64,000 nt of DNA from Minisyncoccota bacterium (GTDB lineage Bacteria; Patescibacteriota; Minisyncoccia; Minisyncoccales; JAQTVQ01). This document shows positions 4,609 through 57,598 of the stretch, piece by piece. Positions within the stretch are counted from its first letter, which is position 1; every line of letters begins with the position of its first letter. The notes beneath the pieces are model-generated. The model had not been told where the DNA came from. It ran no database searches and saw nothing but the letters and a program-made list of their open reading frames with translations. The stretch spans positions 29,821 to 93,820 of the forward strand of contig JBBABZ010000001.1 in the NCBI GenBank assembly GCA_041657385.1, written 5' to 3'. A program made the translations under genes and the position numbers.

Positions 4609-4710
4609 GCGAAAAGCTAAAAGCGAAAAGTGTAAAATAAACGAACGAATATTTTACGCTTTGCACTTTTGTTTTGCACTTTTCGCTTTACCTGCCTGCC
4701 GGCAGGCAGG
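4609..4710. repeat. Intergenic palindromic element (GCGNAAAG-unit arms) ending in the 20-bp GC palindrome CCTGCCTGCCGGCAGGCAGG (4691-4710)
   Basis: Arms gcgaaaagctaaaagcgaaaagtgtaaaat / attttacgctttgcacttttgttttgcacttttcgcttta are inverted complements. The perfect GC palindrome is at 4691-4710. Confidence 0.8.
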
Positions 4711-4831
4711 CGCTTTCCAAAAATTTAAAGATTAAAATAATAAATAATAATTCCAAAAATCGAACAGCCAGTATCAAATAAATAAACAAAGGTTATTTGA
4801 CATTAGGATTTTGAAATTTGGATTTAAGCAA

Positions 4832-5812
4832 ATGTTAGTGATAAACCAAAAACAGGTCAAAAAACTTCTTCCTTTAAGCGATATTAAAATCGTAGTTAAA
4901 GCGGTAGAGAACGCTTTCGGCGATTATGGCCGCGAGCTGGTCCAGATGCCCTGCAAGCAATACCTTTATTTCACCGAAAATAACGGCGACTTAAGGGTCA
5001 TGCCTTCTTATTCTTCCGTCTTAAAAATGGCCGGAACAAAAATAGTCAATGTTCATCCAGACAATCCTAAAAAGGGCTTAGCCACTGTCATGGCCAGCAT
5101 TATTTTGAACGATCCGAAAAACGGCATGCCCGTAGCGATGATGGATGGAAGTTATATCACCGCCATGAGAACCGGCGCCGCCGGGGCTGTTGCGGCCAAA
5201 TACCTGGCCCGCGAAGACGCGGCCACTCTCGGAATAGTAGGAGCTGGCGTCCAAGCGATCTATCAAATAGCCGCCACTTCCAAAGTGCGCAAATTAAAAG
5301 ACATTGCTGTTTTCGATCCCAATAAAAAAGCTGCCGACAACCTGATCAAAATTTTAGCCAAAGAAGGGATAAAAGTCCGTGCCGCCGATAGCATCGAAGA
5401 AGCTTGCGGAATGGATATCGTCACCACAACCACTCCCGTTAGAAAACCGATCGTCAAAAAAGAATGGATCAAGCCGGGAGCCCACATCAACGCCATCGGA
5501 GCCGATGCCGAAGGCAAAGAAGAGATAGAAGCGGAAGCCTTGAAAGGAATGAAAATAATTATCGATGACTGGGCGCAGGCCAGCCACTCGGGAGAGATCA
5601 ATGTGCCTCTTAAACAAGGCGTTATAACCAAAGAAGATATTTGGGCCGGATTAGGAGATATAATTGCCGGGAAAAAACAAGGCAGAACCAACGCCGAAGA
5701 AATAACCATCTTTGATTCCACCGGTCTCGGGCTCCAAGATCTTTATACCGCCGTGGAAGTAATGAAGCTGGCCAAGAAAGAGGGAGTGGGAAAAGAAATA
5801 GAACTGATCTAA
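4832..5812 (+). CDS. Ornithine cyclodeaminase / mu-crystallin family NAD(P)-dependent enzyme
   Basis: Family-typical layout with a GIVGAGVQA Rossmann segment and overall similarity to the OCD/AlaDH(archaeal)/ketimine reductase family. The ATG at 4832 is preferred over the TTG at 4811. Confidence 0.6.
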   Translation: MLVINQKQVKKLLPLSDIKIVVKAVENAFGDYGRELVQMPCKQYLYFTENNGDLRVMPSYSSVLKMAGTKIVNVHPDNPKKGLATVMASIILNDPKNGMPVAMMDGSYITAMRTGAAGAVAAKYLAREDAATLGIVGAGVQAIYQIAATSKVRKLKDIAVFDPNKKAADNLIKILAKEGIKVRAADSIEEACGMDIVTTTTPVRKPIVKKEWIKPGAHINAIGADAEGKEEIEAEALKGMKIIIDDWAQASHSGEINVPLKQGVITKEDIWAGLGDIIAGKKQGRTNAEEITIFDSTGLGLQDLYTAVEVMKLAKKEGVGKEIELI

Positions 5813-5817
5813 TAACT

Positions 5818-5958
5818 GGCAAAACTAGGTAAAGTGAAAAAGCGTAAAGTGCAAAGCGAAAAGCGCAAAACAACAGTGCAAAATTTAAAATATTCGTTCG
5901 CTGTTTTTAGCTTTTCGCTGTTGCTTTACGCTTTGCGCTTTTAGCTTTACGCTTAATC
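5818..5958. repeat. Intergenic palindromic element of the GCGTAAAG/GCGAAAAG-unit family
   Basis: Left arm aaagcgtaaagtgcaaagcgaaaagcgcaaaacaacagtg, centre aaaatttaaaatattcgttcg, right arm ctgtttttagcttttcgctgttgctttacgctttgcgcttttagctttacgctt. The element ends 3 bp before the next ATG. Confidence 0.8.
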
Positions 5959-5961
5959 TCT

Positions 5962-7461
5962 ATGTTATATTCCAAAGACCAAATCAAAAATATCATTCCC
6001 TATGATGACCCCTTCCTTTGGGTCGATGAGATCGAGAAGATCGAAGGCGATACAATTTTCGGTTCCAAGCAAACTTCTCCCCAAGATCCGTATTTCAAGG
6101 GTCATTTCGTTGATTTTCCGATCATGCCGGGCGTTTTGGTCGTAGAAGGGCTTGCCCAAACTGGAACTCTTTTACTTCGCGAAAGGCTTGGCAGCAGCCA
6201 CCAGCAAAAACATATCCTAGCCTATCAAGTAAGAAGCGCTATATTCTATTCGCCGATACTGCCCGGAGACAAGATCAAATACAAGGTCCGATTGCTCGGT
6301 ATATACGGCTCCAAGATCGCCAACTTCGTGGGAGAAGCTTATGTGGCAGATACTTTAAAATGCGAGCTTAGATTTTCAGCGGCCATTCTCGACAAAAAAG
6401 AGATGCAGGAAAAATTCCTGGCCGACAGAACAAATTCCCAGCCGGAAAAGAAAAAACTGTTCGAGCTTCCAGCGCTAAAAGTAGGAAGATTTACCGCAAA
6501 ATTACCGATCATCCAAGGAGGAATGGCTGTCCGCGTTTCCCTTCATAAACTGGCTGGCAATGTCGCCAAAGAAGGCGGGGTAGGAATAATCGCCGTTTCG
6601 GGAATGAAGGATCCGCAGGAAGTAAAAGATGAGATCAGAAAAGCGCGCGCAATTGCCGGAGAAAACGGAGCGATCGGCATCAATATAATGGGAGTTGTCG
6701 GACAATTCAAACAGCTGGTAACCGCGGCGGTTGAAGAAAAAGTCGACCTGATAATCCAGGGAGCGGGATTCCGCACGGACATTTTCGAAATGACCAGGGA
6801 AAGCTCCATCCCCGTTTTCGCCATGGCTTCATCAGCGAAAGTAGCTAAAAGGGCGGAAGAAGCTGGCGCATCGGCCGTTGTTGTTGAGGGTTGCGATGCC
6901 GGCGGCCACCTTGGATTCCCTCATGGACATCCTTTCCGTAAAACCATAGACATCATAAAGGAGGTCGTTAAAGAAGTGCGCATCCCCGTTATCGCCGCTG
7001 GAGGCATTTTTGATGGAAAGGATATTGTAGAAATGTTAAGAGCCGGAGCGAAAGGCATTCAAATGGCGACCCGATTCGTTTCGACCGAAGAATGCGATGC
7101 TGACATAAAATTCAAAGAAGCGCACATCAACGCAAAAAAAGAAGACATCGTTATCATCCATTCGCCAGTGGGCCTGCCCGGCCGAGCGATCAAAACCCCT
7201 TTTGTTGAAAAACTTTTGAAAGGAACTGCGCCCAAGCCCGACCCGATCGAGTGCCAAGGCTGTATAGGACCAGTTTGCGACAAAAGCTATTGCATCCTGA
7301 AAGTACTGGAAAACGCCCGGAAAGGAGACTTGGAAAACGGCCTGGTCTTTGCCGGAGCCAACGTTTGGAGAGTAAACAAAATGACAACGGTCAAAGCTTT
7401 AATAAAAGAACTGGTAGATGAAGCGAATGAAATACTGGCTAAGGAGCCGTTAATATCATAA
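5962..7461 (+). CDS. Fusion protein: N-terminal FabZ-like 3-hydroxyacyl-ACP dehydratase hotdog domain plus C-terminal FabK-like (NMO/nitronate monooxygenase TIM-barrel) enoyl reductase
   Basis: N-terminus PFLWVDEIEKIEGDT...GHFVDFPIMPGVLVVEGLAQ matches the FabZ/FabA signature including the catalytic His. From about residue 175 onward, LPIIQGGMAVRVS...GAGF...VVEGCDAGGHLG is FabK/NPD-like. Confidence 0.7.
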   Translation: MLYSKDQIKNIIPYDDPFLWVDEIEKIEGDTIFGSKQTSPQDPYFKGHFVDFPIMPGVLVVEGLAQTGTLLLRERLGSSHQQKHILAYQVRSAIFYSPILPGDKIKYKVRLLGIYGSKIANFVGEAYVADTLKCELRFSAAILDKKEMQEKFLADRTNSQPEKKKLFELPALKVGRFTAKLPIIQGGMAVRVSLHKLAGNVAKEGGVGIIAVSGMKDPQEVKDEIRKARAIAGENGAIGINIMGVVGQFKQLVTAAVEEKVDLIIQGAGFRTDIFEMTRESSIPVFAMASSAKVAKRAEEAGASAVVVEGCDAGGHLGFPHGHPFRKTIDIIKEVVKEVRIPVIAAGGIFDGKDIVEMLRAGAKGIQMATRFVSTEECDADIKFKEAHINAKKEDIVIIHSPVGLPGRAIKTPFVEKLLKGTAPKPDPIECQGCIGPVCDKSYCILKVLENARKGDLENGLVFAGANVWRVNKMTTVKALIKELVDEANEILAKEPLIS

Positions 7462-7462
7462 A

Positions 7463-7562
7463 TAAAAAGCGTAAAGTGCAAAGCGAAAAGCGCAAAACAA
7501 CAGTGTAAAGCTAAAAGCAACGAACGGATATTTTACACTTTTCGCTTTACGCTTTGCACTTA
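7463..7562. repeat. Intergenic palindromic element of the GCGTAAAG-unit family
   Basis: aaagcgtaaagtgcaaagcgaaaagcgcaaaacaacagtg ... cgaacggatattttacacttttcgctttacgctttgcact is a near-identical left arm to the copy at 5818. Confidence 0.8.
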
Positions 7563-7571
7563 ATATCTCCT

Positions 7572-9140: not shown

Positions 9141-10676
9141 ATGCCAAAAATAAAAAAAATATTGATCGCCAACAGGGGAGAGGTGGCCCTGCGGGTCATC
9201 CGAACCTGCAAAGAGATGGGGATCAAAACGGTCGCCCTTTGCCCGATGCCGGGCCAGGAAAAATTCTTTTTGGAAACAAAATTAGCCGATGAATATCGAT
9301 TTTTAAATAAAGAAGGGGCTCAAGGCTATCTAGATGCCAAAAAAATCGTCGAAATAGCGAAAGAGGCAGAAGCCGACGCTATCCATCCGGGCTATGGCTT
9401 CCTTTCCGAAAATTGGAAATTCGCCGAACTTTGCCAAAAAAATAAGATCACCTTCATTGGGCCCAGTCCGGCAATTTTGAAAATTTTTGAGGATAAGATC
9501 AAGGCTAAAAAATTCGCCAAGCTTGCGGGCCTGCCCACCTTGCCGGCCAGCGCCGGGTCTGTCAAAACCCAAAAAGATCTTATGAAATGGGCGGAAAAGA
9601 TCGGCTCTCCTTTTGTTCTCAAAGCCCAGCGCGGCGGCGGGGGGATCGGCATAAGAATTATTGATGGAAAAATCACAGTGAACCAAATCTCCGAGATCTC
9701 TTCCGATATCCAAAGACAGATGTCGGTTTCTTTTGCTGACGCCGATTTCTTTTTGGAAAAATATCTGACCGAAGCCAAGCATATTGAATTTCAAATTCTA
9801 GGCGACGGAAAAAATTTCGTCCATCTGGGAGAAAGGGAATGCACCATCCAAAGAAGATTTCAAAAATTGCTGGAGGAAGCCCCGTCTTCTTTTCTTGATG
9901 AAAAATTAAGGAATAAAATGGGAAGCTTGGCGGTCGGCCTCGCCAAAAAATTAGGATATAAGGGCGCCGCCACGGTGGAATTTTTGATAGATAAAAACAA
10001 AAATTTTTATTTTATGGAGGTCAATCCGCGGCTTCAAGTAGAGCACCCGATCACCGAAGCCATTACCGGAGTTGATATCGTAGCCCAGCAGATAAAGATC
10101 AGCCAAGGCGAAGAGCTGGATTTCAAGCAAAAAGATATCCGCTTGAACGGCTGGGCTATAGAGGCCAGGATCAACGCCGAAGATCCCCAAAAAAAATTCC
10201 AGCCCGGGCCGGGCACGGTGCAAAAATACCTGCCGCCGGGAGGCCAGGGAATTTTTATGCATACCTTTTTGCAGCAAGGCCAGAAGATATATCCTCATTT
10301 TGACTCAATGCTGGCCAAGCTGATCGCCTGCGGCAAAACCCGCCAAGAGGCTATTTCCAGGCTCAACCGCGCCTTGGACGAATTGGTCATAGAAGGAGTA
10401 CCCACTACCGCTTCGTTCTTTAAAATCGTCCTCGCGGACAAATGTTTTCTAGGGGGAGATTTTTTTACTAATTTTATTGAACGGGAAGAGATCGTTCAAA
10501 AACTTGCCGAAGGGCCGGCCCAGATCATCTGCGATTCTTGCGACCTAGACGAAGAAGACATCGCCCAGATCATTTTTCAGGTTTATCAAAAAATGAAAAA
10601 AGAAAAAAAGACCGGATCACCGCAAAAAATTTCCAACTGGATCTTGTCCCAAAGGCTGAAAATGCTGGACAATTAG
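9141..10676 (+). CDS. accC: Biotin carboxylase subunit of acetyl-CoA carboxylase
   Basis: N-terminus KKILIANRGEVALRVIRTC, the ATP-grasp glycine loop QRGGGGIGIRI, and EVNPRLQVEHPITE. Confidence 0.9.
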   Translation: MPKIKKILIANRGEVALRVIRTCKEMGIKTVALCPMPGQEKFFLETKLADEYRFLNKEGAQGYLDAKKIVEIAKEAEADAIHPGYGFLSENWKFAELCQKNKITFIGPSPAILKIFEDKIKAKKFAKLAGLPTLPASAGSVKTQKDLMKWAEKIGSPFVLKAQRGGGGIGIRIIDGKITVNQISEISSDIQRQMSVSFADADFFLEKYLTEAKHIEFQILGDGKNFVHLGERECTIQRRFQKLLEEAPSSFLDEKLRNKMGSLAVGLAKKLGYKGAATVEFLIDKNKNFYFMEVNPRLQVEHPITEAITGVDIVAQQIKISQGEELDFKQKDIRLNGWAIEARINAEDPQKKFQPGPGTVQKYLPPGGQGIFMHTFLQQGQKIYPHFDSMLAKLIACGKTRQEAISRLNRALDELVIEGVPTTASFFKIVLADKCFLGGDFFTNFIEREEIVQKLAEGPAQIICDSCDLDEEDIAQIIFQVYQKMKKEKKTGSPQKISNWILSQRLKMLDN

Positions 10677-11120
10677 CTAAATCAAATGTCAAATCTCAAA
10701 AGTCAAAACCACAGCTTAAATCCTAAAAACGAACTAAAATTTCGCCGTTATCGCTTTTCCATTGATATTATCAATGCCAGCAAAGATTTCCCGAAAGAAC
10801 GGACATTTGATATTATCGCCAAACAGTTGCTAAGAAGTTCTACCAGTATAGGCGCGAATATTGTTGAGGTAAAATCTTCAAGCTCCCGCAGGGATTTTAT
10901 TAAATTTTATGAAATCGCTCTAAAATCCGCTAATGAAACAAAATATTGGCTTGGACTTTTAAGAGATGGTTTGAATTTTGACGGAGAAAAAATAAATATA
11001 TTCTTGGCTGAAGACGATGAGATATCAAAAATGATCGCCGCGAGCCTAATCACATTAAAAGGTAAAAGGCTTTAATCTATATGGTTTTGAGATTTGACTT
11101 TTGAGTTTTGAAATAAGCTT
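10676..11120. mobile_element. MITE-like element: inverted terminal repeats built from TCAAA(A/T)CTCAAAAGTCAAAACC subunits, carrying a four-helix-bundle gene
   Basis: Left arm tcaaatgtcaaatctcaaaagtcaaaaccaca (about 10683-10714) and right arm ggttttgagatttgacttttgagttttgaa (about 11081-11110) are inverted copies. An empty copy lies at 12185-12318. Confidence 0.5.
10686..11075 (+). CDS. Four-helix-bundle protein (23S rRNA intervening-sequence protein family, TIGR02436-like)
   Basis: Family blocks FPKERTFDIIAKQLLRSSTSIGANIVE and ALKSANETKYWLGLL. The ATG and first 17 or so codons lie inside the repeat arm. Confidence 0.55.
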   Translation: MSNLKSQNHSLNPKNELKFRRYRFSIDIINASKDFPKERTFDIIAKQLLRSSTSIGANIVEVKSSSSRRDFIKFYEIALKSANETKYWLGLLRDGLNFDGEKINIFLAEDDEISKMIAASLITLKGKRL

Positions 11121-11495: not shown

Positions 11496-11529
11496 CTGCG
11501 TAAATTTTCAATTTACAATTCTCAATTTT

Positions 11530-11549
11530 CCTGCCTACCGGCAGGCAGG
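11530..11549. repeat. GC palindrome CCTGCCTACCGGCAGGCAGG (one mismatch), flanked by inverted AT-rich arms (aattttcaatttacaatt / gaaattgaaaattgtaaatt)
   Basis: Read directly from the sequence. The flanking arms at about 11497-11529 and 11606-11640 are inverted copies. Confidence 0.75.
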
Positions 11550-11652
11550 CAATGAATGTTTCAATTTTCAAAAATTCCGTTATCGTCATTGAAGCATTGG
11601 AACATTGTAATTTCATTGGAAATTGAAAATTGTAAATTAAAAATTCACGCTT

Positions 11653-12183: not shown

Positions 12184-12184
12184 A

Positions 12185-12318
12185 TGGCTCAAAAATCAAA
12201 TCTCAAAATTCAAAACCACAACTAAAAACCAAAAAGCTAAGCGTTATTTAATAAATTATAAAAAGTTAAAAAGTTTTAAATTATAGTTTTGAGCTTTGAC
12301 TTTTAAGTTTTGAATTAG
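12185..12318. repeat. Empty copy of the TCAAATCTCAAAA(G/T)TCAAAACC inverted-repeat (MITE-like) element
   Basis: Left arm tcaaatctcaaaattcaaaaccacaact, right arm agttttgagctttgacttttaagttttgaa, about 60 bp of AT-rich filler between them. Confidence 0.55.
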
Positions 12319-12324
12319 AATACT

Positions 12325-14746: not shown

Positions 14747-15427
14747 ATGCCCGCTTCTTATTTTTTAATATCCCTTTTCTCTTACCTGCTCGGTTCAATA
14801 CCGGCCGCTATTTTAATTGGAAAACTTTTCACCAAGAAAAATTTTCAAGAAGAGGGAAGCGGCAATCTTGGCGCCACCAACGCTTTAAGAATCGTCAGCA
14901 AAGAAAAAGGGAAATTCTGGGGAACCGCGGCCTTTCTTGCCGTTTTTCTTTTTGACGCCAGCAAAGCAGTGGCCGCTTGTTTGATCGCAACGAACTTTAT
15001 TCCCGATCGGACCGCAGCTTTAACTCTGGCCGCCTTTTTTACCGTTCTTGGCCATAATTATTCATTGTTTTTAAAATTCCGGGGAGGGAGGGGAGCTGCT
15101 TCCTTGCTTGGCGTCCTCTTATTTTTCGATTGGCGCGTCTTTTTAGCTTGGGTTGGAACTTTTTTGGCCGTAGCCGTTATCTTTGAGGCTGTTGAAAGCA
15201 AAAAAATCGACAAAAAAATAGTGGCCAGAGCCGCTAACCGCCAAATTATCGGCCGTCTTGTTGGAGAGGTCTTAGCCCTTATTCCCATCTACCTTCTCAA
15301 TCAAACTCTTTTTTGGCCAACCCTTTTCGCTACGCCATTGATCCTTATCAAACATAAAGAAAGGGTGAAAAGACAGTTGCAAGAGATAGCTGAAAGCGTA
15401 AAGCTAAAAGCGCAAAGCGTAAAGTAA
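14747..15427 (+). CDS. plsY: Glycerol-3-phosphate acyltransferase
   Basis: LLGSIPAAILIGK and GSGNLGATNALR motifs. Polytopic membrane protein. The C-terminal tail of about 25 aa reads into the repeat element. Confidence 0.8.
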   Translation: MPASYFLISLFSYLLGSIPAAILIGKLFTKKNFQEEGSGNLGATNALRIVSKEKGKFWGTAAFLAVFLFDASKAVAACLIATNFIPDRTAALTLAAFFTVLGHNYSLFLKFRGGRGAASLLGVLLFFDWRVFLAWVGTFLAVAVIFEAVESKKIDKKIVARAANRQIIGRLVGEVLALIPIYLLNQTLFWPTLFATPLILIKHKERVKRQLQEIAESVKLKAQSVK

Positions 15428-15552
15428 CAGCGCCTGCCTGCCGGTAGGCAGGTAAAGCTAAAAGCAACGAACGGATATTTTTAGCTTTACGCTTTTGTTT
15501 TGCGCTTTTCGCTTTGCACTTTACGCTTCCTTGCTTTACGCTTCCTTACGCT
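15405..15552. repeat. Intergenic palindromic element (GCGTAAAG-unit arms) with a central GC palindrome CCTGCCTGCCGGTAGGCAGG (15433-15452)
   Basis: gcgtaaagctaaaagcgcaaagcgtaaagtaacagcg - palindrome - taaagctaaaagcaacgaacggatatttttagctttacgcttttgttttgcgcttttcgctttgcactttacgc. Confidence 0.8.
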
Positions 15553-21567: not shown

Positions 21568-21640
21568 ATTTTTATATCTAACCTTACCCGCAAAAAGGTT
21601 TGAAAATTAAAAATTGAAAATTAAAAATTTTTAGCGGAGG

Positions 21641-33313: not shown

Positions 33314-33327
33314 CCTCAAATCAAACT

Positions 33328-33744: not shown

Positions 33745-33751
33745 ATTTATT

Positions 33752-34393
33752 ATGGCAAAGATCGCAACCCAACAATTTCTTCCCATCGACCAAATCAGAG
33801 AAGGAGTACTGCTCTTAAAAGACAGATCTATGAGGGGGGTCATTATGATCTCTTCTTTGAATTTCGCCTTGAAATCGGAAGATGAACAAACGGCCATCAT
33901 CTACCAATTCCAAAATTTCCTAAATTCTCTGGATTTTTCCTGCCAAATAATCGCTCAATCTCGAAAATTAAACATAACCGGATACCTCGAAAAGCTCAAA
34001 GAGATAGAAAAGGCCCAGCAAAACGAACTTCTCAAAACGCAGACGGCTGAATATCGCAAATTCATTGAACAAATAATAAGCGGGGGATCGATCATGTCAA
34101 AAAGTTTTTATACCGTTGTCCCTTATTATCCTTTAATAGATATTCCTGGAGCTCCTGGAGCAAAACAAAAAAAAGATGCCAGCAGGGCTAGTTTGACCGA
34201 AGAAAAATTCCAGCGCGGAAAATATCAGTTATGGCAAAGGATGGAATATGTTGTTTTGGGGTTAAGGCGCTGCGGCTTAAGAGGAAGCCCTCTCAACACC
34301 CCTGAACTGATCGAATTGCTTTGGGCCCATCATCATCCAAAAGAAGCAGAATCCGGATATTATCCTGAATTGCCCCCGGAAATGTTAATTTAA
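33752..34393 (+). CDS. VirB4/TrbE-like protein, N-terminal fragment (split gene or frameshift)
   Basis: Resembles the CagE/TrbE/VirB N-terminal domain (LPIDQIREGVLLLKDRSMRGVIMISS...). Ends 24 bp before the ATPase ORF, which is in a different frame. Confidence 0.45.
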   Translation: MAKIATQQFLPIDQIREGVLLLKDRSMRGVIMISSLNFALKSEDEQTAIIYQFQNFLNSLDFSCQIIAQSRKLNITGYLEKLKEIEKAQQNELLKTQTAEYRKFIEQIISGGSIMSKSFYTVVPYYPLIDIPGAPGAKQKKDASRASLTEEKFQRGKYQLWQRMEYVVLGLRRCGLRGSPLNTPELIELLWAHHHPKEAESGYYPELPPEMLI

Positions 34394-34416
34394 TATATTA
34401 AAAAGCCTTAATCTCA

Positions 34417-36186
34417 ATGAATTTTCTTAAAAAAGGTGAACGGGAGAAATTTTTTGAAGCGGAAAAGATGGACGCAAAAGACATCATCGCCCCCGCCTCG
34501 ATCGAGATCAAACAAAGCAATATAAAGTTAGGCGAAAAATTAGCTAAAACCTACTTTGTTTTTTCCTATCCAAGATACCTTACTACCGGCTGGCTTTCCC
34601 CGATCATTAATTTAGATATTCCCCTGGATATCTCTTTCTTTTTTCATCCAGTGGAAACCGGCGATGTCTTAAAAAAAATGCGTCGCAAAGTTACCGAAAT
34701 ACAGGCCGAACTTTTAGAGAGGGAAGAAAAAGGGTTGGTTCGCGATCCTTCGCTCGAAACCGCTTACAATGACTTGGAGAACCTGCGCGACAGCCTCCAA
34801 ACCGCGCAAGAAAAAATGTTTAAATTTGGATTATATATTACCGTCTACGCCGACACCGAAGCCCAGCTCACAGATGTTGAGACGACCCTAAGATCAGTGC
34901 TTGAATCGCGTTTGATCTATCTAAAGCCGGCTCTCTGCCAGCAAAAAGAAGGATTTATCTCTGTCTCGCCATACGCTATAGACCAATTGCAAGTCCACAC
35001 CAGCATCAATACCGGCCCATTGTCTTCTGTTTTTCCTTTTGTTTCTTTTGACCTTAGCTCTAATGAAGGAATTTTGTACGGCATGAATAAGCATAATAAT
35101 TCCCTGGTTCTGTTCGACCGCTTTACCCTGGAAAACGCCAATATGGTCATTTTCGCCAAATCCGGATCAGGAAAATCTTACGCGGTCAAACTAGAGGTAT
35201 TGCGATCTTTAATGATGGGAGTGGAAGGGATTATCGTTGACCCGGAAAACGAATATGAAATGCTTTCCGATTCGGTTGGAGGCTCCTTTTTTAAAATCTC
35301 TTTAAGCTCGGATGATCATATCAATCCTTTTGATCTGCCGATCCCCCGCGAAGATGAAAAAGCGGAAGATGTTTTAAGGTCAAACATCATCAACCTTGTT
35401 GGGCTTATCAGGATCATGCTTGGAGGGCTGAACCCGGAGGAGGATGCGATCATCGACCGCGCGCTGGCTGAAACTTATGCCGCCAAAGATATCACGCCGG
35501 ATTCCGACCAATCAAAATGGAAAGAGAATACCCCGATCTTATCGGATTTGGAATCAGTTTTGGAAACAATGCAAGGAGCGGAATCACTGGTCCAAAGAAT
35601 AAGAAAATTCACTCGCGGAACATTTTCTTCTTTCTTTAATCAGCAATCCAATATTTCTATGGATAAACAGTTGGTTGTTTTCGGGATCAGAGATATGGAA
35701 GACGAGTTAAGGCCGATGGCAATGTTTATTATTATGCGCTATATTTGGAACGAGATCCGATCCGAATTGAAAAAAAGGATATTAGTGATCGATGAGGCTT
35801 GGTGGCTGATGCAGTCCGAAGACGGAGCCTCTTTCTTATATGGCATGGCCAAGCGCGCCCGCAAATATTGGCTGGGAGTAACCACTATCACTCAAGATGT
35901 TTCCGATTTTATGAAATCTTCCTATGGCAAACCGATCATCACTAATTCCTCTCTCCAGCTTCTTCTCAAACAGAGCCCAGCTACTGTTGATATTCTTCAG
36001 CAAACTTTTAACCTGACCGACCAAGAAAAATTTTTACTGCTTGAAACGCCGATAGGAGAGGGAATTTTTTTCGCCGGACAAAAACATGTATCTATTAAAA
36101 TAGTCGCTTCTTATACAGAGGACCAGATTATAACCTCCAGTCCAGAGCAAATCTTAAAGATCAAAGAAGCTAAAAAAAATATCTGA
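34417..36186 (+). CDS. VirB4/TrbE-like T4SS ATPase (central and C-terminal part)
   Basis: Walker A in MVIFAKSGSGKSY and the RKYW...TQDVSDF C-terminal blocks typical of VirB4-family ATPases. Confidence 0.75.
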   Translation: MNFLKKGEREKFFEAEKMDAKDIIAPASIEIKQSNIKLGEKLAKTYFVFSYPRYLTTGWLSPIINLDIPLDISFFFHPVETGDVLKKMRRKVTEIQAELLEREEKGLVRDPSLETAYNDLENLRDSLQTAQEKMFKFGLYITVYADTEAQLTDVETTLRSVLESRLIYLKPALCQQKEGFISVSPYAIDQLQVHTSINTGPLSSVFPFVSFDLSSNEGILYGMNKHNNSLVLFDRFTLENANMVIFAKSGSGKSYAVKLEVLRSLMMGVEGIIVDPENEYEMLSDSVGGSFFKISLSSDDHINPFDLPIPREDEKAEDVLRSNIINLVGLIRIMLGGLNPEEDAIIDRALAETYAAKDITPDSDQSKWKENTPILSDLESVLETMQGAESLVQRIRKFTRGTFSSFFNQQSNISMDKQLVVFGIRDMEDELRPMAMFIIMRYIWNEIRSELKKRILVIDEAWWLMQSEDGASFLYGMAKRARKYWLGVTTITQDVSDFMKSSYGKPIITNSSLQLLLKQSPATVDILQQTFNLTDQEKFLLLETPIGEGIFFAGQKHVSIKIVASYTEDQIITSSPEQILKIKEAKKNI

Positions 36187-36189
36187 AAA

Positions 36190-36213
36190 CAAAAAAGCCC
36201 TTAAGGGCTTTTT
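36190..36213. terminator. Bidirectional intrinsic terminator hairpin
   Basis: aaaaaagcccttaagggctttttt lies between convergent genes. Confidence 0.65.
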
Positions 36214-36303
36214 TGTTTTCAGAATAAATTTTATAATTTCCATTTGGCTCTGCTGTCGGGAGGGGCAACTCGCTCCCCGAGGCGGAAGCCCGCCCCGATA
36301 AAA

Positions 36304-37822: not shown

Positions 37823-37875
37823 ATTGAGTCTTTTTGGCTTTGACTAAAATTAAAACCGCCTTGATAAAAAAGATC

Positions 37876-38010
37876 CTAGACGGTTAATTGCCAGCGGCCC
37901 TTTTGTCTTCTTCTTGCTAAAGTCCTTTGGCCTCCTTTGGTGTTTTTTCTAGCCAAAAATCCATGGGTCCTTGCTCTTTTTTTCTTTTTGGGATTATAGG
38001 TTACGCTCAT
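37876..38010 (-). CDS. rpmH: 50S ribosomal protein L34
   Basis: Translated by hand from the minus strand as [44 protein letters not shown]. Not in the ORF track (44 aa). Confidence 0.8.
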
Positions 38011-38274
38011 GCACCTAAATATAGCAAAAATTGGGTTTTTGTCAATTTGTTTTTACCAGAGAAAAGATAATAACAGTTTTTCCACAGCTCTTGCACAGAA
38101 ATTTAAAAAACATAAAGAATGCCTCATTCTTTACTTATCCACAGCTTATGCTCTATAATAATTTCACCCGCTAAAAGTTTCATTTTTTGCTGAAATATCT
38201 TCTAAAAATCATCCCAGCGATTAGCCGATCCTAAAAATTAACAGGTAACTTCATTTAAGATTTAAGGCAAATCT
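38011..38274. promoter_or_regulatory. dnaA upstream region with DnaA boxes (ori-associated)
   Basis: TTATCCACA in cttacttatccacagctt (about 38137) and the near-box TTTTCCACA (about 38085). AT-rich context. Confidence 0.5.
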
Positions 38275-39639
38275 ATGACATACCAAGAACTCTGGCAAAC
38301 CGTATTGGCGCAAATCCAGCTTAATATTTCTCCTGCTAATTTCGCGACGTGGTTCGCAAGCACCAAGATCGCTTCCCAGGAAGAGGGGATGATAATCGTT
38401 TCTGTGCCAAACTCCTTTGCCAAAGAATGGCTGGAGCAAAAATACAACAAAGAGATCTTAAAAATATTAAGGGCCTTAGATTCAAGCATTAAAGAAATAA
38501 GCTATCAAATAGATTTTCCGGCGGTAAAAATAAAGGAGCTAGTAAAGCAGCCCGAGCCCCAAGAACTTCCAATGGAGCAGCTCGGGTTTGCCGAGCTGGA
38601 AACAGATAAAGAAACAAACCTTAATCCAAAATATAATTTTCAAAATTTTATAGTCGGACCCTTTAATGAATTGGCATATGCCGCAGCCAAAGCTATTGTT
38701 AAGGAGCCTGGAAAGGTTTATAACCCGCTGTTTATTTACGGCGGGGTAGGATTGGGAAAAACCCATTTATTACAAGCTGTCGGGAACGAGCTGTCTAAAA
38801 AAAATCCGCCGTGCAAGGTTAAATACGTCCCGTCCGACAAATTGATCTCCGCTATCGTTAGTTCTATCCGAAACAATAGCATTGAAGATTTAAAAGCCAG
38901 CTTAAGAAAGGTTGATGTTTTAATAGTAGATGATGTCCAATTTTTTGCCGGAAAAGAAAAAACCCAAGAAGAATTTTTCCACACGTTTAACGATCTCTAC
39001 CAAAGAGGAAAACAAATAATCCTTTCTTCCGACCGCCCTCCTAAAGCCATCCCGGCGATCACGGAAAGATTAAAATCAAGATTTGAGGGGGGGATGGTGG
39101 CCGATGTCAGCCTGCCGGATTACGAAACAAGGCTGGCTATTTTAAAGCAAAAAACAGTGGAAAAAAACGCTGAAGTCCCGGAAAAGGCCTTGGAATATAT
39201 CGCGGCTAATATCCAAAAAAACGTCAGAGAGATTGAAAGCGCTTTGAATAGGCTTTTGATTTTTCAAAAGATAAACAATAAGGTTCCCAGTTTTGAAGAA
39301 GCAAAAAAACTTTTAAGGAATATTATTGTTTCTCCGTCTAAATTCACCAATCCAACCCATATACTCCAAACCATAAGCGAATTTTACGACCTTGACGACA
39401 AAAATTTATTTTATTCTTCCCGCAAAAAAGAGTTTGTTAAACCTCGCCAACTGGCTATGTATTTATTGAGAAAAGAATTAAGCTTCTCTTTTCCGGCTAT
39501 CGGCCGAAAATTCGGAGGAAAAGACCACACAACTGTAATGCATGCCTGCCAATTAATAGACCGCGAAATACAAGAAAGTGAAAAATTTTCCCAGGAAGTT
39601 GATTTGATCCTGCAAAAAATTTACACGCTGGACGCATAG
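38275..39639 (+). CDS. dnaA: Chromosomal replication initiator protein DnaA
   Basis: Walker A GGVGLGKTHL, VLIVDDVQF, and a C-terminal DNA-binding domain (KDHTTVMHA). Confidence 0.95.
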   Translation: MTYQELWQTVLAQIQLNISPANFATWFASTKIASQEEGMIIVSVPNSFAKEWLEQKYNKEILKILRALDSSIKEISYQIDFPAVKIKELVKQPEPQELPMEQLGFAELETDKETNLNPKYNFQNFIVGPFNELAYAAAKAIVKEPGKVYNPLFIYGGVGLGKTHLLQAVGNELSKKNPPCKVKYVPSDKLISAIVSSIRNNSIEDLKASLRKVDVLIVDDVQFFAGKEKTQEEFFHTFNDLYQRGKQIILSSDRPPKAIPAITERLKSRFEGGMVADVSLPDYETRLAILKQKTVEKNAEVPEKALEYIAANIQKNVREIESALNRLLIFQKINNKVPSFEEAKKLLRNIIVSPSKFTNPTHILQTISEFYDLDDKNLFYSSRKKEFVKPRQLAMYLLRKELSFSFPAIGRKFGGKDHTTVMHACQLIDREIQESEKFSQEVDLILQKIYTLDA

Positions 39640-39912
39640 TTATTTTTAAAAAACTGTGGATTATTTGTTAAGAAAACATTCATAACTCATTGTGAGAAAT
39701 AGGGGATAAAAAGGGCTTATTTTTTTTCTAAATTATCACCTCGATTTCTATCCATTAATTCAACACGGCTTCCCACTTATTTTTCCACCATCTATCCATA
39801 AATATTTTTTACCATAAGGCTTTCAAAGATTGGATTTCCAGATATTATCCACAGAAAAAAAGCTCAATATAATAACAATAAATAAAATAAATTTTTAATA
39901 AATTATTATATT
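39640..39912. promoter_or_regulatory. Probable oriC: DnaA-box cluster plus an AT-rich unwinding element between dnaA and dnaN
   Basis: Boxes tgtggatta (reverse orientation), ttatccaca at about 39845, and near-boxes ctatccat/tttccacc/ctatccata. These are followed by aataaataaaataaatttttaataaattattatatt. Confidence 0.6.
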
Positions 39913-41058
39913 ATGAAAATTACTTTATTAACCAAGACTCTGAAAAAAGGGCTGGCCGTGGTCGAAAAAATTGCCGGCAGGGTTTCGACCTTGCCCATCT
40001 TAAATAACGTTTTAATTGAGGTGTCTCCGAATTTTATAAAATTATCCACAACTGATTTGGAGTTGGGAGCTCAATGGTGGGGTCTTTGCAAGACCGAAAA
40101 AGACGGAAAAATAACCATTCCGGCCAAGTTTTTTTCACAACTGGTAAACTCCTTAAGCGATGAGAAAATAGAGATTGAAGAGAAAAATAAAACAATTTTT
40201 ATTGAAAGCAAAAATTATAAAACCCAAATTAAGGGTTTTTCCGCCGACGACTTTCCAATTATCCCCTCTTTTTCCAAAGATACCTTTATTGAAATAAATA
40301 GTAAAAAACTAAAAGACGGATTATCTGAAGTTATTGATTTTACCAGCCTGTCCCAAGTTAGGCCGGAAATTTCCGGAGTCTATTTTTTATTCAACAATGA
40401 TGGATTAAAACTAGTGACTACCGACAGTTTTCGTTTAGCTGAAAAAACAATAACCTTTTCGGAAAAAAAAGAAGAATATAAAAATCTTTTTGAGAAAGAA
40501 ATAAACTTTATACTTCCGCAAAAAACAGCAAAAGAATTAATTGCTATTCTGGGCGATACCGTAAAAAACACTAGAATTTATTTATCCGAATCGCAGGTTA
40601 TGTTTGAAACGTTATTGCAAGAAACAGACCACCCGGAAGTTAATCTGGTTTCCCGCCTAATAGAAGGGGAATACCCGACCTATCAAGAGATCATCCCAAA
40701 AGAAAGCCAGACAAAAATAACGATCAATAAAGATGAATTTATCAAACAGTTGAAAATAGCCAGCTTATTTGGAGGGAAAATAAATGAAATAAAAATAAAA
40801 GCCGATGCCGAAACGAAAGAATTTGAAATTTTAAGCCAAGACCCCGACCTGGGAGAAAGCAAGTCTAATATTGCCGCCAAAATAGAAGGGGAAAAAGCGG
40901 ATATTTCTTTTAATTGGAGATTTGTTTTAGACGGTCTGGCCCATATTAAAAGCTCGGAAGTATTTTTCGGCCTGCATGATAATAAGGGCCCGGCGATATT
41001 AAAGCCGATCGGCGACGCAAGCTATCTTTACGTGGTAATGCCGATCAATCCTGACTAA
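39913..41058 (+). CDS. dnaN: DNA polymerase III beta sliding clamp
   Basis: 381 aa with three-domain organisation. Conserved position after dnaA. Confidence 0.9.
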   Translation: MKITLLTKTLKKGLAVVEKIAGRVSTLPILNNVLIEVSPNFIKLSTTDLELGAQWWGLCKTEKDGKITIPAKFFSQLVNSLSDEKIEIEEKNKTIFIESKNYKTQIKGFSADDFPIIPSFSKDTFIEINSKKLKDGLSEVIDFTSLSQVRPEISGVYFLFNNDGLKLVTTDSFRLAEKTITFSEKKEEYKNLFEKEINFILPQKTAKELIAILGDTVKNTRIYLSESQVMFETLLQETDHPEVNLVSRLIEGEYPTYQEIIPKESQTKITINKDEFIKQLKIASLFGGKINEIKIKADAETKEFEILSQDPDLGESKSNIAAKIEGEKADISFNWRFVLDGLAHIKSSEVFFGLHDNKGPAILKPIGDASYLYVVMPINPD

Positions 41059-41107
41059 TCGCGATTAGAATTTTTAATTCCGCCGAATGGCGGATCAATT
41101 TTCAAAC

Positions 41108-41135
41108 AAAAAAATCCGCTATAGCGGATTTTTTT
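41108..41135. terminator. Bidirectional intrinsic terminator hairpin
   Basis: aaaaaaatccgctatagcggattttttt lies between convergent dnaN and PBP genes. Confidence 0.65.
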
Positions 41136-50364: not shown

Positions 50365-50892
50365 TTGGGAAATGAGTCTGACTCTGCAGAAAAATTGATG
50401 GAAATACAAACGACCGGGTATAAAAAAACTCAAGAACTTGGCAATATTTTTGCCCAGGAAATTTTAAGGAAGGGGCCGCAGGAAAAAGCGGTCGTTCTAG
50501 CATTATCTGGCGACCTGGGAGGAGGGAAAACCACTTTTTCCCAGGGTTTTGCGAAGGGGCTGGGAGTCAAAAATAGAATAACAAGCCCCACCTTTACGAT
50601 TTTTAAAAGGTTTAAGATCAGTTTGGTCCGCGGCAGGGTTCCTCAAAAAATAGATTTTGAAAGTTTTTATCATTTCGATTGTTATCGGCTTTTGGGGCCG
50701 AAAGATATTTTAGAGTTGGGATTTAAGGAGATTGTTTCATCCCCTAAAAATATTATTTTACTGGAATGGGCGGAAAGAGTTAAGAAGGTATTGCCGAAAG
50801 AAACCATCTGGCTGAATTTTGACTTTGTGAGCCCGAACAAAAGGAAGATCGTGTTAAGCGAAAAGCGCAAAGCGAAAAGCGCAAAACAATAG
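50365..50892 (+). CDS. tsaE: tRNA threonylcarbamoyladenosine biosynthesis protein TsaE
   Basis: LSGDLGGGKTTFSQG P-loop, SPTFTI, and HFDCYRL. Confidence 0.75.
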   Translation: MGNESDSAEKLMEIQTTGYKKTQELGNIFAQEILRKGPQEKAVVLALSGDLGGGKTTFSQGFAKGLGVKNRITSPTFTIFKRFKISLVRGRVPQKIDFESFYHFDCYRLLGPKDILELGFKEIVSSPKNIILLEWAERVKKVLPKETIWLNFDFVSPNKRKIVLSEKRKAKSAKQ

Positions 50893-50975
50893 CGCCTGCC
50901 TGCCGGTAGGCAGGTAAAGTTTAAAATATCCGTTTGTTGCTTTACGCTTTTCGCTTTTAGCTTTACGCTTAACAA
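50857..50975. repeat. Intergenic palindromic element (GCGAAAAG-unit arms) with a central GC palindrome CCTGCCTGCCGGTAGGCAGG (50895-50914)
   Basis: gcgaaaagcgcaaagcgaaaagcgcaaaacaatagcg - palindrome - taaagtttaaaatatccgtttgttgctttacgcttttcgcttttagctttacgctt. The left arm encodes the C-terminal tail of TsaE. Confidence 0.8.
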
Positions 50976-53058: not shown

Positions 53059-53091
53059 AAACAACCAACAACGATAAATAGATAAAAATTC

Positions 53092-53133
53092 ATTTATTTT
53101 ACGCTTTTAGCTTTACGCTTTTAGCTTAAATGA
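53092..53133. repeat. Short copy of the CTTTACGC/GCGTAAAG repeat family
   Basis: ttacgcttttagctttacgcttttagctt lies immediately upstream of the HK gene. Confidence 0.6.
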
Positions 53134-53136
53134 GCT

Positions 53137-54773: not shown

Positions 54774-54826
54774 ATCTTGGCGGGGGGCCGGACCGAAGCC
54801 ATAATTAATTTAGCTAAAAATAAAGT

Positions 54827-55195: not shown

Positions 55196-55197
55196 CA

Positions 55198-56073: not shown

Positions 56074-56173
56074 GGAGTTAGGAGCCAGGAATTAGGAATT
56101 AGCTTGTAGGCGTTTCATTTCGCGAAAGGAAAAATACGAAGGCAAGCCCCTACAAGCTACAAGCTCGCAAATT

Positions 56174-57127
56174 ATGATCATTTTTTTATACGGTCCGGAT
56201 ACTTATCGCAGCCGGAAAAAACTTGGCGAAATTATTGAAAGCTATAAAAAAGCCCATAAAAACGGCTTGAGTTTGAGCATTTTTGAGGGGCAGAATCTTT
56301 CTTTTCAGGAATTGAAGAGTCAAATGCAATCGATGTCGATGTTTAGAGAAAAGAAATTAGCGATCGTTAAAAACGCCCTGGCTAACAAAAAATTTAAAGA
56401 AGATTTTTTGAACGACAAAGAAGTTTTTCTAAAAACAGAGGACATCGTTGTTTTTTTTGAAGAAGGGAAGCTGCCAGCCAAAGACGCTTTAGCTTCTTTC
56501 TTAGAGGAAAAGGCTTCAAAAAGCCAAGAGTTCGAATTTTTATCCGGAGCCCGGCTTAAGAATTGGATAAAAAAGGAGTTGGACGGATATCAATCCGAAG
56601 CCGATTCCCAGGTTGTTGAAAAATTAGTCCAGGATGTCGGCGGAGACCTTTGGCAAATGTCTAACGAGATCAAAAAATTGGCCAGTTTCAGATATAAGGA
56701 AAAAATTACAGTCAAAGATGTCGATCTGCTAGTAAGGCCCAAAATTGAAACAGATATTTTTAAAACCATCGACTATATCGGCCAAAAGGATAAAAGAAAC
56801 GCCTTTCTTTTGATAAAGAAGCATCTAGAAAAAGGAGAATCCCCTTTCTACATTTTTTCAATGATCAATTTCCAGTTTAGAAATTTAATTATGGCCAAAG
56901 CCAAATGCCAGGAAGGGGATCCGGATGCTCCCGGCCAATTCAATATTTGGGCCAAAGAGCTCGGAATGCATCCTTTTGTTTTCAGAAAGGCTTTTTACCA
57001 ATCCCAGCATTTTAAAACGGAAGAGCTTAAAAAGATATATCAAAATATTTTTAAAATAGATCTGGCAACAAAAACCGGAGAATTAACCCCGGAAATTGCT
57101 TTAGATATTTTTGTGGCCCAGATCTAG
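56174..57127 (+). CDS. holA: DNA polymerase III delta subunit
   Basis: N-terminus MIIFLYGPDTY, size and three-domain layout typical of HolA. Confidence 0.6.
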   Translation: MIIFLYGPDTYRSRKKLGEIIESYKKAHKNGLSLSIFEGQNLSFQELKSQMQSMSMFREKKLAIVKNALANKKFKEDFLNDKEVFLKTEDIVVFFEEGKLPAKDALASFLEEKASKSQEFEFLSGARLKNWIKKELDGYQSEADSQVVEKLVQDVGGDLWQMSNEIKKLASFRYKEKITVKDVDLLVRPKIETDIFKTIDYIGQKDKRNAFLLIKKHLEKGESPFYIFSMINFQFRNLIMAKAKCQEGDPDAPGQFNIWAKELGMHPFVFRKAFYQSQHFKTEELKKIYQNIFKIDLATKTGELTPEIALDIFVAQI

Positions 57128-57132
57128 TTTTT

Positions 57133-57399
57133 TTACTTGCCGACTTTAGCGGCGAATATTGAGATCCTTGATTTTCTGCGGCTGGCGTTGTTTTTTTTGA
57201 TGACGCCGGCTTTAGCGGCTTTATCAAGAGCTTTGTAGACTTGAGGTAATATTTTCTGTAATTCCTCGCCCTTTTTAGCAGCAGCCAAAACCCTAACCTG
57301 TTTCAAAACTTCTTTGATCTCTTTCTTATATTGCAGGTTTCCGAGTTTTCTCTTTACGGATTGGCGCTGTGCTTTTTTGGCTGATTTTGTTATGGCCAT
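57133..57399 (-). CDS. rpsT: 30S ribosomal protein S20
   Basis: MAITKSAKKAQRQSVKRKLGN N-terminus. 88 aa, basic. Confidence 0.85.
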   Translation of the reverse strand: MAITKSAKKAQRQSVKRKLGNLQYKKEIKEVLKQVRVLAAAKKGEELQKILPQVYKALDKAAKAGVIKKNNASRRKSRISIFAAKVGK

Positions 57400-57445
57400 A
57401 TTCTTTTGCGGAATTTAAGTAATTTAACGATTAACAAAAAAATCA

Positions 57446-57598
57446 TAGCATAAATGCGTGAAAGCGTAAAGTGAAAAGCGAAAAGCGTAAAACAAAAGCG
57501 TAAAATTTAAAATATTCGCTTCTTCGTCATTCGTTGCTTTTAGCTTTACGCTGTTATTTTACGCTTTGCTTTTTTAGCTTTACGCTTTTAGGGAAGAT
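57446..57598. repeat. Intergenic palindromic element of the GCGTAAAG-unit family
   Basis: gcgtgaaagcgtaaagtgaaaagcgaaaagcgtaaaacaaaagcgtaaaatttaaaatattcg ... gcttttagctttacgctgttattttacgctttgcttttttagctttacgcttttag. Confidence 0.8.

Follow-up and report, generated by a model that had tools for sequence, protein, structure and literature searches.

Palindromic elements with heptamer-array arms at operon junctions of a Candidatus Paceibacterota genome, and their probable kinship with rRNA intervening sequences

The stretch of DNA considered here, 64 kb of contig JBBABZ010000001.1 (hereafter the window), comes from a member of Candidatus Paceibacterota within the candidate phyla radiation (CPR, or Patescibacteria), whose genome is compact and whose genes are tightly packed. 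Dispersed through it is a family of imperfect palindromes of 75-164 nt, here called family A, with seven copies in the window and one more upstream. These seven elements are likely, in our judgement, to be short members, lacking any open reading frame (ORF), of a family of selfish palindromic elements that resemble the intervening sequences (IVSs) of rRNA genes. A complete element of this kind would consist of a left arm of tandem heptamers (here GCGNAAA), a gene for a four-helix-bundle (4HB) protein of family PF05635/TIGR02436, and a right arm of complementary heptamers; the short forms would keep the arms and a short core after losing the gene, much as miniature inverted-repeat transposable elements (MITEs) relate to their parent transposons.

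Seven loci had been cited in an earlier note on this DNA, and each, when read directly, does hold a palindromic element of the kind described there. There are 78 matches to the motif GC[GT]NAAAG and its complement in the window, where shuffled sequence gives 14.2 +/- 2.9, and they cluster at these loci. A repeat finder sorts the loci into direct and inverted families. Across the whole 64 kb, a profile hidden Markov model of the family matched the six full copies at E-values of 1e-12 to 5e-33 and found no further match in the window. Metagenome contigs of several samples are identical to the window at more than 99.9%, and one of these same-strain contigs, L121, extends the view upstream to 68 kb of host genome in all, adding the eighth copy. 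The copies are listed below with their predicted RNA folding energies (dG in kcal/mol); 'GC palindrome' denotes a 20-nt insertion (ATTGCCTGCCGGCAGGCAGG; CCTGCCTGCCGGYAGGCAGG) that is treated separately further on.

c0 (eighth copy), L121:798-927: reversed core; 3.1 kb upstream of the window
c1, 4606-4714: reversed core; gap between a fabG-like SDR gene and the OCD gene, beginning at the SDR stop codon; nested GC palindrome at 4691-4710; dG -46, z -6.4
c2, 5829-5958: gap between the OCD gene and fabZ-fabK; terminal CGCTTAA, 5-7 nt before the ATG at 5962; dG -47.8, z -4.7; profile match E 4.6e-33
c3, 7461-7566: reversed core; gap between fabZ-fabK and fabK, ending 8 nt before the ATG at 7572; TTAATAT at the flanks; dG -32.5, z -4.9
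c4, 15389-15552: reversed core; left arm codes the last 10 residues of PlsY; GC palindrome at 15433-15452; T-run and then tRNA-Arg downstream; dG -64.6, z -6.0
c5, 50852-50975: left arm codes the last 12 residues of TsaE; GC palindrome at 50895-50914; TTAA on either side; next ATG at 50979; dG -57, z -7.0
c6, 53059-53133: truncated or decayed, with a clear right arm at 53095-53133 and a left-side remnant, AAAACAACCAACAACG; ends 7 nt before the ATG at 53137; below the nhmmer threshold
c7, 57453-57592: divergent rpsT-ruvA gap, the flanks of which are conserved in a relative; dG -49.3, z -5.1

The sites fall in a fatty-acid operon (SDR/OCD/fabZ-fabK/fabK, and plsY followed by tRNA-Arg), in a run of tsaE, 5'-3' exonuclease, HAMP and histidine-kinase genes, and in the rpsT-ruvA gap; genes around the window copies are uniformly on the + strand. 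The elements had been said often to end 2-5 bp before the next ATG; the distance is 5-8 nt for c2, c3, c5 and c6, and for c1, c4 and c7 it is 118 nt, 48 nt (to the tRNA gene) and 43 nt, respectively. The claim that two upstream proteins have element-encoded tails stands in full: PlsY runs ...EIAE and then SVKLKAQSVK*, TsaE runs ...KRKIV and then LSEKRKAKSAKQ*, and in both the final residues (10 and 12) come from the left arm and are unlike the tails of relatives.

Family A arms are built of tandem GCGNAAA heptamers, with four to seven heptamers per arm in full copies. Unit starts lie 7 nt apart in 41 of 58 cases, and identity at a lag of seven is 0.46-0.56, against 0.29-0.32 at other lags; the octamer units reported previously arise because the first G of the following unit was counted in. 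The commonest units are GCGTAAA, GCGAAAA, GCTAAAA, GTGCAAA and GCGCAAA, the fourth position being free, and the family consensus reads AGAAAGCGTAAAGTGCAAAGCGAAAAGCGCAAAACAAnAGCG-CAAAGTTTAAAATATCCGTTCGTTG-TTTTAGCTTT...CTGTTGCTTTACGCTTTTCGCTTTTAGCTTTACGCTTAA. Between the arms lies an asymmetric, non-repetitive core common to all eight copies, which align as one family when oriented by it (alignment A1); it faces one way in c2, c5, c6 and c7 and the opposite way in c0, c1, c3 and c4. The core together with its junction, CAAAACAACAG...TTTAAAATATYCGTTCG, recurs at unlinked loci and in different genomes. Arms are 85-97% identical between copies, whereas the two arms of a single copy are only 74-87% complementary, which argues that one imperfect palindrome was copied and pasted and against local expansion.

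Fold prediction, which the earlier note had proposed as a check, gives a stable RNA hairpin for each full copy: long and mismatched, with stems of about 30-50 bp, free energies of -32 to -65 kcal/mol and z-scores of -4.7 to -7.0. No Rfam family was found for the elements, either at the gathering threshold or at E<=10; only the two tRNAs of the window pass, and the elements draw far sub-threshold matches to microRNA-precursor-like hairpins alone. The same scan found no rRNA genes in the window.

The junctions concerned were compared with those of relatives, in the fab region (L124, L125, L126 and L127) and in the downstream region (L171, L172 and L173), and differ in both presence and family; a comparison with sister genomes was another of the checks proposed. 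At window junctions filled by elements, more distant relatives have only 0-10 nt between stop codon and ATG. The fab operon is syntenic throughout; in L126 and L127 (77-79% amino-acid identity) its genes abut or overlap and carry no elements, while in the closer L124 and L125 (87-91% identity, L124 at 91%) the gaps hold palindromes of the same design built from other units, AAATCCA/TGGATTT or AATTTTC/GAAAATT. At the tsaE-exonuclease junction, the window has family A, L172 the AAATCCA family, L173 the GAAAATT family, and L171, a co-occurring species from the same sample, an AT-rich variant with the shared core. The HAMP-kinase junction is empty in L173. At the rpsT-ruvA gap, conserved flanks enclose family A in the window and the AAATCCA family in L173. 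The family A profile has no match in about 107 kb of L124, L125, L171, L172 and L173. Elements are inserted in either orientation, exactly into the stop-to-start junctions of operons, and their turnover is fast, related genomes having other heptamer families or nothing at the same junctions.

Family A orthologous copies persist between related genomes, and their comparison shows how they change. The c1 region has diverged by 10.8% from its orthologue in L148, compared with 1.1% for the adjacent coding DNA, a rate about ten times faster, yet the hairpin energy is kept (-30.1 against -32.6 kcal/mol), and substitutions between orthologous copies mostly preserve pairing. A 24-mer from the arm/core junction retrieved 41 metagenome loci, several with three to five elements in 4.5-13.5 kb; the genome of origin of such loci is established where they are syntenic with the window. 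The same 24-mer had no match in viral contigs, and c2 had none by blastn in plasmid and phage collections. With eight family A copies in 68 kb of host, and elements overall at about one per 3-10 kb, these sequences are a major and fast-changing part of the very small intergenic space of CPR genomes. One short-read contig, L170, breaks inside c5 (L170:1-64); other short-read contigs of the host population end in or beside elements, and exonuclease homologues sit on contigs of 1-2.5 kb. Evidently, the repeats fragment short-read assemblies of these genomes.

The connection with a gene comes from a second family in the window, family C, which is present in both a long and a short form.

Family C long form, 10676-11115, + strand: 440 nt, filling the accC-accB junction exactly from stop codon to ATG; left arm TCAAATG TCAAATC TCAAAAG TCAAAAC..., right arm GTTTTGA GATTTGA CTTTTGA GTTTTGA
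4HB gene within it, 10686-11075: PF05635, the 23S rRNA intervening sequence protein family, at E 8.6e-23; TIGR02436, named four helix bundle protein by NCBI, at 88.5 bits against a cut-off of 24
Family C short form, 12184-12320: ORF-less; gap between the biotin-protein ligase and carboxyltransferase genes, 1.1 kb from the long form

The short form matches the long form in its arms at 85% and 84% identity. In the four relatives L124-L127 the long form is absent and only 1-52 nt separate accC from accB. The closest solved structures to the encoded protein are PDB 2rld and 2gsc. Homologues of it (42-48% identity by tblastn) lie between family A arms on the metagenome contigs L138, L152, L157, L165 and L167, the last from the same sample as near-identical strain contigs; several metagenome loci had seemed to carry just a left arm, because the 4HB gene lies between the two arms. 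The short copies of the window match both flanks of these long forms at 83-91%, and the 4HB gene is the sole gene between the arms in all 23 long forms examined. The long and short forms would thus correspond to an autonomous-looking element and its deletion derivative.

The association extends well beyond this lineage. A tblastn search with the window 4HB protein against 72,556 plasmids returned 31 records, mostly from Nostocales, and all 16 that were fetched have their TIGR02436 gene bracketed by inverted tandem heptamers of lineage-specific sequence, such as (AATTCGT)n...(ACGAATT)n, (GTGATTA)n...(TAATCAC)n, (AAATTCA)n...(TTTTGAA)n and (TTACCAG)...(TCACTGG)12. These 16 belong to Cyanobacteriota, Bacteroidota, Chloroflexota and Spirochaetota (genera Dolichospermum, Nostoc, Aulosira, Anabaena, Planktothrix, Gloeocapsa, Euhalothece, Pseudanabaena, Bernardetia, Chondrinema, Chlorohelix and Treponema). 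Their flanks show lag-7 identities of 0.32-0.73, against 0.20-0.35 at other lags, and flank-to-flank duplexes have z-scores mostly between -3 and -13. Most of the plasmid genes stand between co-directional operon genes, nine in sense and three in antisense, and they split pairs such as RND adaptor/permease, drmD/MmeI, helicase/methylase, cas1/cas2 and, in two phyla, DUF1156/Swt1-HEPN. The 4HB genes are often inside defence operons (L177, L178, L180, L186, L187, L188), including DISARM drmD/MmeI and helicase/N6-methylase pairs; the DUF1156/Swt1-HEPN split occurs in Gloeocapsa and Chlorohelix, and the cas1/cas2 split in Anabaena and Pseudanabaena.

A 50-kb stretch of one Nostoc plasmid was looked at as a whole. 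One of its 4HB genes ranks first of 59 coding sequences in flank pairing (-72.3 kcal/mol, compared with a median of -31.3), and an unbiased scan found ten period-7 arrays, eight of which belong to the unit families of 4HB elements: four bracket two 4HB genes, two form a gene-less inverted pair of the same unit, and two solo arrays share the unit of the other 4HB element. Arrays of the GCGNAAA type itself are also widespread. Their search used a loose pattern and the figures hold among the matches listed, where at least 121 arrays from more than 12 phyla have a complement within 400 nt downstream in 34 cases and upstream in two; 1 of 113 far controls reaches the same score, and the gaps that contain such elements are tandem in 12 cases, convergent in six and divergent in one. 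In a planctomycete (L012, Planctomycetota), a 4HB gene lies between GCGGAAA-type arms. The polarity of the GCGNAAA type is reversed in family B (described below) and in L180, L187 and L188, which makes it more likely that this polarity reflects common descent of one widespread family than a functional rule. Composite heptamer-array regions are common outside CPR. At L004, L055, L062, L072 and L081 (Verrucomicrobiota, Bacteroidota and a Bacillota metagenome-assembled genome), GCGNAAA arrays adjoin arrays of CAGCAAC, CAACTGC, CTCCTTA/GAGTAAG or ATGTCGA.

Two further families of the same design occur in the window, as follows.

Family B element, 11496-11652: (AATTTTC)n...(GAAAATT)n with a GC palindrome at 11530-11549; ends AAATTCACGCTT directly before an ATG; RNA dG -45.6, z -6.8
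Family B partial copies: 1078-1113, 2764-2822 and 21595-21629
Family D element, 56074-56170: (GGAATTA / GCTTGTA)...(CTACAAG), in the fpg-holA gap

Family B recurs in L124 (15095-15260 and 15780-15950), in L125 and in L173 (9890-10000). In several genomes it ends ...AAATTCACAC(N2-4)TT directly before the ATG of unrelated genes. The family D element is orthologous in three genomes (the window, L171 and L173). It seems that a family B element supplies the whole 5' context of the gene downstream.

The GC palindrome had been taken for an alternative core of the elements, but it proves to be a separate insertion. It is found five times in the window, where none is expected (2790-2809, in a family B right arm; 4691-4710; 11530-11549; 15433-15452; 50895-50914). 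Within family A it occupies three different positions, each splitting GCG^TAAAG, and it lies inside family B elements as well; the orthologue of c1 in L148 is without it, and the orthologous pairs c1/L148 and L135/L147 differ by a clean indel of 20 or 16 nt that is exactly the palindrome unit. The varied positions, the two host families and the clean indels together identify it as a second, nested and independently moving unit, a small mobile insertion that is polymorphic between strains. Other small palindromes are nested in the loops of some family A copies, such as CCTCCGAAGGAGGATCCGCCTCCGGCGGAG and GTCATCCTGAGCGAAGCGAAGGATCTC...GAGATTCCTCACTTCGTTCGGAATGAC (L151:1160-1299, L155:1363-1502, L130:572-720). 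Several kinds of tiny insertions appear to target family A elements.

The elements are inserted between cistrons and in two cases replace the last residues of the upstream protein. On the analogy of rRNA IVSs, RNase III probably cleaves the hairpin that they would form in polycistronic RNA. Such a cut would make the insertion tolerable and would separate the flanking cistrons, so that the elements probably decouple cistrons that formerly overlapped in CPR genomes; in the long forms it would also free the 4HB mRNA, which would have no promoter of its own. Arms of period 7 should still pair after slippage by whole units, which may be why the stems survive rapid sequence change. For movement at the DNA level, the sole candidate would be the 4HB protein, possibly with a reverse transcriptase acting in trans; no transposase, RAYT or Y1-transposase domain was found in the 68 kb of host or the 107 kb or so of relatives.

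A broader proposal, which we advance only tentatively and think rather doubtful as a whole, is that heptamer-bracketed 4HB genes are pan-bacterial mobile 'operon intervening sequences', of which the rRNA IVSs are the subset resident in rRNA. Their ORF-less derivatives would then account for much of the intergenic excess of heptanucleotides, including the short tandemly repeated repetitive (STRR) sequences of cyanobacteria, the CPR elements and the GCGNAAA arrays of more than 12 phyla, and arm recognition and mobility would fall to the 4HB protein, which might be helped by a reverse transcriptase working on hairpin RNA that RNase III had excised.

Several observations weigh against the IVS-like reading. 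Cleavage by RNase III is proposed by analogy, and we know of no mobility enzyme among PF05635 proteins. A consensus fold of 17 trimmed copies with RNAalifold recovers no long common stem, owing to arms of differing unit number and register; duplex energies across 42 copies reveal no consistent advantage of a copy's own arm over a foreign one, in a comparison confounded by arm length; and families C and D fold weakly as RNA (z -0.8 for the family C short form at 12184-12320, -1.9 for the family D element). No consistent target-site duplication was found at the ends of the window copies, at the 41 metagenome loci or in the empty/filled accC-accB pair. The known long forms with family A arms are all on metagenome contigs and none is in the window itself, and the plasmid sample is mostly cyanobacterial and was chosen by similarity to a single query protein.

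Among other explanations, the elements might be host-beneficial operon punctuation, that is, terminators, attenuators or 3'-end stabilisers akin to repetitive extragenic palindromic (REP) sequences and bacterial interspersed mosaic elements (BIMEs), kept by selection and with spread only secondary. This would suit the stable RNA hairpins, the A-rich 5' arm and U-rich 3' arm that the GCGNAAA type presents on either strand in the manner of bidirectional terminators, the downstream excess of partners and the mix of gap types seen across phyla among the matches listed, the T-run between c4 and a tRNA gene, the retention of the fpg-holA element in three genomes and the mainly pairing-preserving substitutions between orthologues. 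We nevertheless consider it unlikely, given that more distant relatives have no element at the same junctions, that related genomes fill one junction with unrelated families, and that element sequence changes about ten times faster than its flanks. Copies also stand in divergent gaps (c7; L167:10104-10227), the family A stems are long, AT-rich and mismatched with no U-tract following in at least five of seven copies, and convergent gene ends in the window (36187-36225 and 41100-41135) use canonical terminators instead. An A-left/T-right polarity as functional constraint was likewise rejected, since polarity is family-specific and other families have the opposite one. The combined terminator/promoter module that had been suggested finds no support in the tests made: a consensus scan found no sigma-70-like hexamer pairs in family A arms, and only c4 is followed by a U-run. 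The related idea that a DNA- or RNA-binding protein uses the elements as site arrays, or that they are promoter modules, and that they regulate the gene downstream, draws on the recurrence of a 7-nt motif, in either orientation, immediately before start codons, on the family B end that recurs before the ATG of different genes in different genomes, and on the presence of a loose Shine-Dalgarno-like motif in only 7 of 59 window genes, such that unusual initiation signals are conceivable. A binding array, also raised in the earlier note, seems to us highly improbable, for the fourth unit position is free, the families that occupy one junction in different relatives have wholly different units, the sequence changes fast, promoter-like hexamer pairs are missing, and the downstream genes (fab genes, exonuclease, histidine kinase, ruvA, tRNA) are functionally unrelated.

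The remaining alternatives concern origin. If the elements were heptanucleotide microsatellites grown in place by slippage and intramolecular template switching, with neither mobility nor any link to a gene, one would expect the variation in unit number between copies and the many unrelated heptamer arrays in loci of other phyla; heptameric simple sequence repeats (SSRs) are indeed over-represented in bacterial intergenic DNA and have been put down to slippage, and GGGAATC arrays in Xanthomonas form inverted pairs (PMC4692102). Growth in place would not, however, give unlinked loci and different genomes a common non-repetitive core and junction, set an asymmetric core in both orientations, make arms more alike between copies than within one, or hold a gene between the same arms in the long forms, and we find this account very unlikely. 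Were the elements ordinary MITEs or REPINs, mobilised by a DDE or HUH (RAYT, IS200/IS605) transposase acting in trans from another part of the genome and with the 4HB gene as passenger cargo, they would have the terminal inverted repeats, small size, high copy number, two orientations and presence/absence differences that are seen; c5 has TTAA on both sides, and the GC palindrome resembles REP sequences or small dispersed repeats in its precise insertion without duplication. The TTAA is itself palindromic, though, and may be no more than the terminus of the inverted repeat, other copies having no consistent duplication, and there is no GTAG or CGTC head. With no transposase or RAYT gene in the host and relative sequence examined, and with nothing other than a 4HB gene between the arms of 23 long forms, this explanation is hardly plausible. 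Also dropped as unsupported were DNA uptake sequences, Chi-like sites, GNRA mini-hairpins, stop codons in all three frames and leaderless-mRNA promoters in the right arm.

Some features of the window apart from the elements may be recorded here. The stretch 37823-41058 opens with a gap of 452 nt, after which come dnaA (38275-39639) and dnaN (39913-41058); cumulative GC skew has its minimum there and rises strongly after about 50 kb, and genes at 1-31 kb are directed towards this stretch. The replication origin probably lies inside the window. Most gene starts are preceded by AT-rich sequence ending T/A-ATG, and leaderless or very short-leader mRNAs are suggested by ruvA, which has a TATAAT box 10 nt upstream of its ATG. 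The canonical bidirectional intrinsic terminators mentioned above (A-run, GC stem, T-run) both occupy convergent gene gaps, in contrast to the heptamer elements at tandem junctions. A cluster of PrgI-like, TraC-like and VirB4/TraG-like ATPase genes at 32813-36186, and genes resembling type IV secretion system pilins (including those at 15756 and 28156), suggest a conjugation- or competence-type apparatus near the origin.

What the present analysis adds to the earlier note is the repeat period of 7, the GC palindrome as a nested mobile unit, and the connection with gene-carrying PF05635 forms. The cross-phylum association of 4HB genes with heptamers is the part likely to surprise specialists, and it is directly testable. 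To our knowledge, rRNA IVSs and their S23p proteins have had no established origin, mobility mechanism or function for more than 30 years, and the excess of heptameric repeats in bacterial intergenic DNA, cyanobacterial STRRs among them, likewise lacks an explanation; should the two form one class that also colonises operon junctions, this could be tested in culturable Nostoc, Anabaena and Xanthomonas. For CPR bacteria, the elements matter in that they alter protein C-termini and break short-read assemblies, while elsewhere the genes that they split include the defence operons DISARM, cas1-cas2 and DUF1156-Swt1. An Avd-like protein would, moreover, connect the elements with diversity-generating retroelements. 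Our reading of the literature, which is incomplete in coverage, found no description of 4HB genes with heptamer arrays outside rRNA or of gene-less derivatives, which is absence of evidence only; for repeat sequences, CPR palindromic repeats and PF05635 with heptamers, the one relevant paper that this incomplete coverage turned up concerns the Coxiella IVS.

That IVS, from Coxiella burnetii, is a selfish element of 428 nt in the 23S rRNA gene with terminal inverted repeats cut by RNase III, an S23p (PF05635) ORF, and, at the 5' end that also contains the RNase III site, tandem GACAGAT heptamers of strain-variable number (PMC4990558). The rRNA IVSs of Coxiella, Leptospira, Salmonella and other bacteria share with the elements described here the terminal inverted repeats and long stem, the optional PF05635 ORF in the loop (as in the family A long forms and the family C long form of the window), ORF-less forms of about 100 nt, the tandem heptamers in the Coxiella case, and the standing of selfish DNA (PMC4990558). 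They differ in location, the classical ones being defined by insertion in helices 25 or 45 of the 23S rRNA gene, whereas the window elements lie between protein-coding cistrons, beside a tRNA gene or in a divergent promoter gap; the window elements are also multi-copy and comprise several co-existing heptamer families, and their excision by RNase III is a prediction. A further connection is with Avd of the diversity-generating retroelements, of which PF05635 proteins are structural relatives in the same four-helix-bundle fold family (PMC10053308), although no reverse transcriptase, template repeat or variable repeat stands beside any element that we examined.

The resemblance to MITEs, such as the Correia/NEMIS elements of Neisseria, the enterobacterial RU and ERIC sequences and the Rickettsia palindromic elements, lies in a non-coding length of 100-160 nt, inverted-repeat ends, many copies in either orientation, probable derivation by deletion from a longer gene-carrying form, and RNA hairpins. 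Correia elements are RNase III substrates, and the Rickettsia elements can add residues to neighbouring ORFs, as c4 and c5 do here. Here, however, the long form carries no recognisable transposase, its only gene being that of the 4HB protein, a kind of protein for which we know of no transposase activity, and the arms are tandem heptamers instead of unique inverted repeats, with no consistent target-site duplication found. The likeness to REP sequences, BIMEs and REPIN-RAYT systems, which the earlier note had drawn, is sound in the broad sense that these are dispersed, multi-copy, hairpin-forming intergenic palindromes in both orientations that would form hairpins in mRNA, and the GC palindrome is REP-like in size and GC content. 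Neither it nor family A has a GTAG/CGTC head, no RAYT gene is present in the sequence examined, and family A elements are AT-rich, much longer, and periodic in their arms. The GC palindrome alone may be likened to the small dispersed repeats of Nostoc, unrelated in sequence and from another taxon, which Elhai et al. in 2008 reportedly described as hairpin-forming units of about 20-27 nt that have entered other repeats many times over, with precision and at a favoured site.

Lastly, heptameric SSRs and STRRs (GGGAATC in Xanthomonas, GGGGAYT in Nostoc) are intergenic tandem heptanucleotides of variable number, over-represented and of unexplained function, with the Xanthomonas arrays sometimes in inverted pairs (PMC4692102). 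They have been described as plain tandem arrays, while family A has a unique core and an inverted second arm, and the STRR and SSR literature searched does not connect them with a dispersed element, a common core or a 4HB gene; on the Nostoc plasmid, all the same, eight of the ten period-7 arrays are of the unit families found around 4HB genes. Gene-less IVS-like palindromes with heptamer-array arms are new for CPR bacteria, and they are probably kin both to the IVSs of rRNA and to the MITE- and REP-like repeats of other genomes.

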